DNA of 32,000 nucleotides from Vibrio alginolyticus NBRC 15630 = ATCC 17749 (GTDB lineage: Bacteria > Pseudomonadota > Gammaproteobacteria > Enterobacterales > Vibrionaceae), in contig NC_022349.1 of NCBI RefSeq assembly GCF_000354175.2, forward strand, positions 2,400,001-2,432,000, read 5' to 3'. The notes under the pieces were generated by a model, which saw nothing but the letters and a program-made list of their open reading frames with translations, ran no database searches and had not been told where the DNA came from. Of the stretch, positions 23,287-23,859 are shown in pieces. A program made the position numbers and the translations under genes. Position 1 is the first letter of the stretch. The number at the start of each line of letters is the position of its first letter.

Positions 23287-23859
23287 TTACGTGTGCGCCA
23301 TTCGTGATTGTAGCCAACTGCGAGAGAATTTGAGGTCTTTCTCTATCAGGCTTGCGCTGCATTCGAGTAGCTCACTGATTTCTTGGTTTTTCATGCCCAT
23401 TAAATACTTGAGTTTGAGTGCGCTCGATTGGCGTGGATAGCGGCTACTGAAACTATCCAGAGCTTTATCCATGATAATCAATTGCTCGAAACGATCTTCT
23501 TCATCTCTCATCAATGTAATGTGTTGACGCTTTTGTGCTTGGTGCGAGCGTGCGTTGTCGATCAAGATTTGACGCATCACTTTGGCGGCCATCAAAAAGA
23601 AATCGCGCTTTGTTTCAATTTCACTCATGTCGCAGTTGGACATTTTCAGGTAAGCATCATGAATTAATGCCGTGGTGCTGTTGACGCTGTCTGCCAGTAC
23701 TTTGTTGTCGGTGCCGTACTTTTCTGCATTTCGTTCACGCTCGTGTTGGGCGATCTTACGCAACTGTAAATAAGCAAACTGATAGAGCTCGCTCTCAGCT
23801 CGTTTATCACCAGATTGCCATTGTTGAATGATTTGTGTCAGTGCTACTGCTGTTGCCAT
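23287..23859 (-). CDS. ecfP: ECF-type sigma-70 family factor, kinase-associated class (ECF43-like; matches V. parahaemolyticus EcfP as recalled)
   Basis: 190-aa ORF. The N-terminus LTQIIQQWQSGDKRAESELYQFAYLQLRKIA is typical of the Sigma70_ECF (PF07638-type) family. The region 4.2 HTH is NQEISELLECSASLIEKDLKFSRSWL. NSTT(60-63)ALIHDAYL replaces the canonical DAED..QE patch of region 2.2. The gene starts 2 nt after the upstream stop. Confidence 0.85.
   Translation of the reverse strand: MATAVALTQIIQQWQSGDKRAESELYQFAYLQLRKIAQHERERNAEKYGTDNKVLADSVNSTTALIHDAYLKMSNCDMSEIETKRDFFLMAAKVMRQILIDNARSHQAQKRQHITLMRDEEDRFEQLIIMDKALDSFSSRYPRQSSALKLKYLMGMKNQEISELLECSASLIEKDLKFSRSWLQSRMAHT

Follow-up and report, generated by a model that had tools for sequence, protein, structure and literature searches.

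A Vibrio alginolyticus orthologue of ecfP with an uncharged STTA motif in sigma region 2.2 that probably serves as a phosphorylation switch

We analyzed a 32,000-nucleotide stretch of the Vibrio alginolyticus NBRC 15630 = ATCC 17749 genome (NC_022349.1, positions 2,400,001 to 2,432,000; hereafter the window, from whose first letter all positions are counted), focusing on a minus-strand gene for an extracytoplasmic function (ECF) sigma factor and on a kinase gene that lies on the same strand, two genes upstream. With a probability of about 0.88, the sigma gene is the V. alginolyticus/diabolicus-group orthologue of ecfP, encoding a sigma factor that would be regulated by direct phosphorylation and without an anti-sigma factor. 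The features on which this reading turns are:

23287..23859, minus strand: ecfP orthologue, 190-residue ECF sigma factor, ECF43 / TIGR02999 (profiles and orthology)
23668..23679, minus strand: S61-T62-T63-A64, the uncharged stand-in for DAED of region 2.2 (four alignments)
23671..23673, minus strand: codon of T63, the putative phospho-acceptor (counterpart of the published EcfP phospho-threonine)
25348..26700, minus strand: pknT orthologue, 450-residue Hanks-type Ser/Thr kinase (PF00069, E = 2.6e-38; 87% full-length identity)

Direct reading of the sigma open reading frame (ORF; 23859..23287, minus strand) revealed an ATG start 2 nucleotides (nt) past the stop codon of the upstream gene, preceded by an AGGA ribosome-binding site, so that the residue numbering is sound. 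The minus-strand codons aac (23682-23680), agc (23679-23677), acc (23676-23674) and acg (23673-23671) encode N60, S61, T62 and T63, confirming what a preliminary description of this DNA had reported for an ECF sigma factor at 23671-23682, and are followed by gca for A64 and by the stretch L-I-H-D-A-Y-L-K. Pfam family PF07638 matched residues 7-188 (E = 7e-32) and PF08281 matched region 4. The NCBIfam model TIGR02999 (Sig-70_X6) scored 192.3 bits against a curated cutoff of 126.15, with sigma residues 6-187 aligned to positions 3-182 of the 183 in the model, and TIGR02937 reached 62 bits against a cutoff of 42.9. Having only sigma2 and sigma4 domains, a length of ~190 residues and matches to ECF profiles, the protein is an ECF (group 4) sigma-70 factor, and its TIGR02999 score places it in the ECF43 / TIGR02999 subfamily. 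An AlphaFold2 model of the protein had a mean predicted local distance difference test score of 75.9, with block means of 52-84 over residues 41-100 (sigma2). Its best Protein Data Bank (PDB) matches in Foldseek were SigW, sigmaE, AlgU, SigL, SigH and CnrH, all of them ECF sigma factors; with E-values of 0.01-0.4, which are weak since the orientation of the two domains varies, these hits back the fold class only.

In canonical sigma factors, the region 2.2 helix carries an acidic DAED motif that contacts the basic clamp helices of the RNA polymerase beta-prime subunit. PDB sequence searches with the sigma factor alone or with a 39-sequence profile returned just weak region 4 matches and no usable region 2.2 alignment, and we therefore aligned RpoE and FecI of E. 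coli (K-12 record) to the family. The register of the motif was read from four alignments: the 39-sequence orthologue alignment against RpoE (hhalign), a profile of 146 family representatives against RpoE and against FecI (hmmsearch), and the family alignment after addition of both proteins (MAFFT --add). The 146 representatives, taken at 50% identity or less, were drawn from a scan of the full set of 1.8 billion proteins and share 30-64% identity with the query. All four alignments agreed in placing S61-T62-T63-A64 on D45-V46-P47-D48 of RpoE and D37-A38-D39-D40 of FecI, and the core L-I-H-D-A-Y-L-K aligned with V-V-Q-E-A-F-I-K and I-A-Q-D-T-F-L-R, respectively. T63 is the third motif position, A64 stands for the last Asp, and N60 lies one residue outside the motif, at a position that is Leu in 112 of the 146 wider-family representatives. 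The preliminary description had written the motif as N-S-T-T; its uncharged replacement of the acidic patch stood up to the alignment check, but its register was one residue off, S61-A64 being the stretch that fits DAED. Its statement that the acidic contacts are absent likewise holds for the DxxD positions, which are uncharged, but not for D68, which corresponds to the Glu of DxxDxxQE and keeps that acidic contact. An uncharged region 2.2 motif with a conserved Thr in third place is what ECF43 (consensus QTTA) has at this position.

As a separate observation, Vibrionaceae EcfP orthologues carry an insertion of ~11 residues (EKYGTDNKVLA; window 23697-23729, sigma residues ~44-54) between the region 2.1 and region 2.2 helices. 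The insertion lies directly N-terminal to the phospho-switch, is missing from most of the wider ECF43 family as well as from RpoE and FecI, and falls in a part of the AlphaFold model with low confidence.

Database comparison found the exact sigma sequence on 445 public contigs, under the name 'MULTISPECIES: sigma-70 family RNA polymerase sigma factor [Vibrio]' (UniRef A0A7Y0MSS5_VIBAL), and exact matches to the kinase from V. alginolyticus, V. diabolicus and V. antiquarius. An ungapped alignment of the sigma factor with the V. parahaemolyticus allele found most often (358 contigs) showed 94% identity over residues 1-189, so that the sigma numbering equals that of EcfP. Every one of the 11 substitutions fell outside residues 55-72, the segment that includes N60-S61-T62-T63-A64 and is identical in V. 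parahaemolyticus EcfP. The V. parahaemolyticus locus comprises, in order, genes for the kinase (450 residues), a 490-residue protein, the sigma factor (190 residues) and proteins of 524 and 767 residues. Opp permease genes border this set at one end, and LacI-type, LysR-type and SMR genes plus ilvD border it at the other. Both the five-gene order and the flanking genes recur in the window, with identities to the V. parahaemolyticus counterparts of 87% for the kinase, 90% for the 490-residue protein, 94% for the sigma factor, 59% for a membrane protein and about 84-86% for a lipoprotein. In the literature, VP0055 is EcfP, a member of group ECF43 (PMC7826278, PMC13147305). On the strength of these identities, of the same gene order and flanks and of the literature naming of VP0055, we conclude that the window carries an EcfP/PknT orthologue, with orthologous sigma and kinase genes in conserved synteny. 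The primary paper on EcfP (VP0055) and PknT (VP0057) of V. parahaemolyticus RIMD 2210633 is Iyer et al. 2020 (Nat Microbiol 5:395).

EcfP has STTA in place of DAED and, when unphosphorylated, is intrinsically inactive, being unable to engage the positively charged beta-prime clamp helices; in response to polymyxin, PknT phosphorylates the second Thr of STTA, and the phosphate provides the missing charge, the holoenzyme then turning on a polymyxin-resistance regulon (PMC8999054, PMC8103513). A single phosphosite is given for EcfP (PMC13147305). The counterpart of this phospho-threonine is T63, as the preliminary description had proposed: the ungapped identity of 94%, the conserved synteny with the kinase gene and the exact match of the motif to STTA as published all bear this out. 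We infer that the published behavior of EcfP, that is phosphorylation, inactivity of the unmodified form and response to polymyxin, would hold in the organism of the window. With S61-T62-T63-A64 as its motif, the unmodified sigma factor should have low affinity for core polymerase. The membrane-anchored PknT orthologue would then phosphorylate T63, which would give the third motif position its negative charge back and allow the holoenzyme to form. The latter would transcribe its targets, most likely including the adjacent lipoprotein gene through a TTACGG-N16-CGTGTC element upstream of it.

The kinase has the layout that such a role would call upon, with a kinase domain at residues 79-280 (glycine loop 86-93, catalytic loop 200-207). 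A single transmembrane helix is predicted at ~337-357, and ~90 residues form the C-terminal tail. A Hanks-type kinase gene in the neighborhood is also a trait of ECF43, and the linkage of kinase and sigma genes was present in 22 of 22 related loci. Residues 1-78 of the kinase form a cytoplasmic N-terminal extension (…YYHLLDLDDSQKQQYLQALQQSQPELYRQLVPLL…) without a Pfam match. This extension resembles the helical leader of many kinases encoded beside TIGR02999-type sigma factors, and might be a sigma-docking element.

Several points weigh against regulation by phosphorylation of T63. First, the kinase departs from the usual active-site motifs: its catalytic loop reads H-A-D-LKPEN (non-RD) and not HRD (residues 200-207, window 26080-26103), and its Mg-binding motif reads D-F-N and not DFG (residues 220-223, window 26032-26043). 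Among 17 Vibrionaceae kinase orthologues, D-F-N was found in all and H-A-D was matched in 13, including V. parahaemolyticus PknT, the other four being unmatched by the pattern and not inspected; V. parahaemolyticus PknT, with HAD/DFN too, is reported to be active. Second, the label 'Thr63' comes from secondary sources and from a count along the sequence. The residue number of the EcfP phospho-threonine was not found in the accessible literature text (searched for T63, Thr63 and VP locus tags), and our numbering follows from the sequence together with the wording 'second Thr of STTA' used in print. Third, the T51A mutant of the related sigma factor EcfK from Xanthomonas citri is still functional (PMC13147305), so that the phospho-switch is not equally essential across ECF43. 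Finally, confidence in sigma2 of the AlphaFold2 model is moderate, and we therefore make no claim on the exposure of T63.

Conservation of the motif separates T63 from its neighbors. Position 63 is Thr in all 103 Vibrionaceae orthologue clusters and in 140 of the 146 distant family representatives. Of the Vibrionaceae clusters, 101 have Thr at position 62, 66 have Ser and 26 have Asn at position 61, and 89 have Ala at position 64; acidic residues at positions 61-64 are confined to a single sequence. In the wider family, 91 representatives have Gln at position 61. Most of them hold Thr (58), Pro (56) or Ala (20) at position 62, and position 64 is mostly Ala (102), with Glu or Asp in 20. These counts match the published ECF43 consensus QTTA and the ~16% acidic fraction (15.8% of members with a negative charge beside the Thr; PMC13147305). 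T63, as Thr in 140 of 146 representatives while S61 and T62 vary, is thus the one motif residue under family-wide constraint, a conservation pattern that is not due to chance.

T62 is kept in nearly all Vibrionaceae clusters, although half of the wider ECF43 family has Pro or Ala there. In this lineage, T62 could serve as a second acceptor or help the kinase to recognize the sigma factor, giving a two-step STTA switch, with TTACGG-N16-CGTGTC independently being the EcfP promoter; we consider this combined proposal improbable. Somewhat less probable still is multi-site or graded phosphorylation, raised in the preliminary description, by which the kinase would phosphorylate S61, T62 and T63 and the number of phosphates would tune affinity for RNA polymerase. 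The three neighboring hydroxyl residues and the retention of T62 in Vibrionaceae would suit such a switch, as would the phosphorylation of EcfK on five residues in vitro (PMC13147305). However, S61 is often Asn or Gln and T62 often Pro or Ala, so that neither is a conserved acceptor, and T62 sits at the 'A' of DAED, which is non-acidic in canonical sigma factors (V46 in RpoE, A38 in FecI). Moreover, the extra sites of EcfK are located in its linker and not beside T51, and the EcfP phosphosite is unique in the literature (PMC13147305), leaving phosphorylation at several motif residues unsupported.

Phosphorylation of T63 as the only switch also has to be set against a two-site arrangement as in EcfK, in which T115 in the linker between sigma2 and sigma4 would be needed besides or instead of T63. 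EcfK requires T51 or T106 (PMC13147305), and the linker of the sigma factor here contains one Thr, T115. This residue is not conserved among orthologues, however, and published work gives EcfP as a one-site case. In addition, the linker holds the acidic run D119-E120-E121-D122, and the family column aligned to D119 is a Ser/Thr-rich one (T in 33, S in 23, E in 16 and D in 13 of 146). Tentatively, the charge that EcfK gains at T106 may be built in here by this run, although the linker alignment is gappy and poor; such a hard-wired charge would fit EcfP as a one-site switch. Altogether, we regard a required linker acceptor as highly improbable. A firm mapping of EcfK T106 onto the sigma factor was tried and dropped, as the linker alignment is too gappy, and the equivalence with D119 is conjectural.

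Beyond the sigma and kinase genes, the locus contains the following features:

23862..25334, minus strand: VP0056 orthologue, 490-residue protein with a signal-peptide-like N-terminus, between the kinase and sigma genes (90% identity)
21725..23284, minus strand: VP0054 orthologue, membrane-anchored protein of ~519 residues, directly downstream of the sigma gene (likely start at M27 of a 545-residue ORF)
21589..21616, minus strand: candidate EcfP-dependent promoter, TTACGG (-35-like), 16-nt T-rich spacer and CGTGTC (-10-like)
19141..21462, minus strand: VP0053 orthologue, 773-residue lipoprotein (lipobox LTGC; about 84-86% identity to V. parahaemolyticus)

The 490-residue protein had no match in Pfam or NCBIfam. 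Its gene was found in 20 of the 22 related loci; of the other two, both from Vibrio sp., L008 (4625-6561) lacks it and L010 (4529-6564) holds a 28-residue C-terminal remnant. As both loci keep the kinase and sigma genes, the protein is not obligatory to the pair. Downstream of the sigma gene, the mechanically called 545-residue ORF (21725-23362, minus strand) takes in the last 76 nt of the sigma gene. By the V. parahaemolyticus gene call, which begins at the corresponding MTKKLW, the real start of the VP0054 orthologue is probably M27 (23284), about 2-3 nt past the sigma stop codon. This protein had no Pfam match, and its identity of 59%, compared with 84-94% in its neighbors, suggests fast evolution of an envelope-exposed VP0054-like protein. 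None of the 490-, 545- and 773-residue neighbors matched an anti-sigma family in Pfam or NCBIfam and, as far as these matches and direct reading reach, there is no co-encoded anti-sigma factor, as in ECF43. The VP0054 orthologue was considered as a hidden anti-sigma factor and rejected, because a hydrophobic helix beginning at about residue 5 leaves it no cytoplasmic N-terminal (anti-sigma) domain. The least probable alternative, that the uncharged motif is no switch, T63 being structural and control being exerted by an unrecognized anti-sigma factor (the 490- or 519-residue neighbor) or by transcription alone, can invoke a membrane protein without family annotation in the classical anti-sigma position and a transcriptional layer at the VP0057/VP0058 intergenic region, with its LuxR/OpaR site (PMC2628434), but is countered by the early hydrophobic helix of that membrane protein, by the signal peptide of the 490-residue protein and its loss or near-loss from two loci, by the invariant kinase-sigma linkage and by experiments on the 94%-identical orthologue that support phosphorylation.

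A candidate output of the phosphorylated sigma factor lies in the 262-nt gap between the membrane-protein and lipoprotein genes, which holds the block TTTTACGGGTTTTGTGCGGATTTTCGTGTCTTGAAC, nearly invariant across Harveyi-clade loci. The conserved form of the candidate promoter is TTTTACGG-N16-(T/C)CGT(G/A)TCTTG, ~150 nt before the gene for the 773-residue lipoprotein. TTACGG-N16-CGTGTC had its sole match in the window at this site, against 0.02 expected from shuffles. The more permissive pattern ACGG-N15-18-CGTRTC occurred exactly once in 15 of the 22 related loci (L001, L002-L007, L009, L010, L014, L015, L018-L020 and L024), always on the sigma strand and including Aliivibrio fischeri; on the opposite strand, the 22 loci gave 0 matches, with shuffles giving 1.6 for all loci together. 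At 13 of the 22 loci, a lipoprotein gene starts 40-160 nt (mostly 130-160) downstream of the pattern. Its product opens with a conserved signal peptide, at the end of which stands a GCGGS lipobox (MNKVSLLAASVAIALTGCGGS in most loci). L018 and L019 have the pattern and no ORF of at least 100 residues starting within 600 nt. A consensus scan detected no sigma-70-like promoter in 21400-21800, and no second copy of the motif, as a sign of autoregulation, was found upstream of the kinase gene. The literature searched, the primary paper excepted, yielded no description of the element as an EcfP promoter. We propose, from sequence conservation and placement, that TTACGG-N16-CGTGTC is an EcfP-dependent promoter of the VP0053 orthologue, and the lipoprotein gene is likely the output gene of the system. 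Should the promoter assignment be true, it would offer a defined one-promoter readout of the pathway across Vibrionaceae. VP0053 has been described with Ig-like Ca-binding and lipocalin-like domains (PMC10734457).

Between the candidate promoter and the start codon of the lipoprotein gene, a perfect 16-bp palindrome, ATCTCACTAGTGAGAT, occupies window positions 21528-21543. It is kept in all eight aligned Harveyi-clade sequences, one of which has a one-base insertion at its center, and is followed by the invariant 5' leader AAGCGACTTTCTCATTCGGAAACGAAACAAGGA. The palindrome may be an operator or an RNA hairpin.

On the other side of the locus, the kinase gene and the gene of a LacI-type regulator diverge from an intergenic region at 26701-26856. 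In the equivalent VP0057/VP0058 region, a site for LuxR (the quorum-sensing master regulator)/OpaR has been predicted and was bound in vitro with a dissociation constant of 47 nM (PMC2628434). In the window, an AT-rich block (AATAAATAAATGACATT, 26749-26771) is kept in most aligned Harveyi-clade loci. Given this block and the LuxR site of the equivalent region, the system may also be under quorum-sensing control. Elsewhere in the window, the plus strand carries a tRNA cluster at 9995-10590, Arg(CCG)-His(GTG)-Pro(TGG)-His(GTG)-Pro(TGG), in which the His-Pro pair is tandemly duplicated.

The system is already known: mechanism, motif and family-wide distribution have been published and the 11 substitutions lie outside the switch region, which makes our finding a rediscovery of a characterized mechanism and not a new principle. 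We add a correction of the motif register, evidence that speaks against multi-site phosphorylation and a candidate promoter, conserved between loci, that could be used as a reporter. The intact, near-identical copy of the system means only that the V. alginolyticus/diabolicus group, and Vibrionaceae at large, very probably use the mechanism as published. Polymyxins are a last-resort class of antibiotics. In V. parahaemolyticus, resistance to them is governed by this system (PMC8999054, PMC8103513).

Among known systems, EcfP/PknT is the closest. Besides the sigma factor and gene order, the two loci share the HAD/DFN motifs and the predicted transmembrane topology of the kinase, and the candidate promoter before the lipoprotein gene is present in V. 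parahaemolyticus as well. They differ in their host, here the V. alginolyticus/diabolicus group, and in the VP0054 orthologue, which is much more diverged (59%) than the other genes. EcfK (XAC4128-type)/PknS of X. citri belongs to the same ECF43 family, likewise lacks an anti-sigma factor, and carries a Thr at the third position of its degenerate DAED motif (T51) that is phosphorylated by an adjacent transmembrane Hanks kinase (PMC13147305). In contrast to STTA, however, the EcfK motif QATE retains one acidic residue. A second EcfK site in the linker, T106, can substitute for T51, whereas the linker here is constitutively acidic (DEED, 119-122), and the insertion of ~11 residues before the motif is a feature of the Vibrionaceae proteins, unlike EcfK. 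The outputs differ too, being the type VI secretion system for EcfK in X. citri and a polymyxin-resistance regulon for the V. parahaemolyticus orthologue of the system in the window. More distantly, RpoE/RseA and FecI/FecR resemble the present system in the sigma2-sigma4 architecture, in the region 2.2 core (L/V-V/I-Q/H-E/D-A/T-F/Y) and in the region 4 helix-turn-helix. Yet RpoE (D45-V-P-D48) and FecI (D37-A-D-D40) are acidic where the sigma factor here has S-T-T-A, and both are kept inactive by a co-encoded anti-sigma factor, whereas the latter is accompanied by a kinase and has no anti-sigma-like neighbor.
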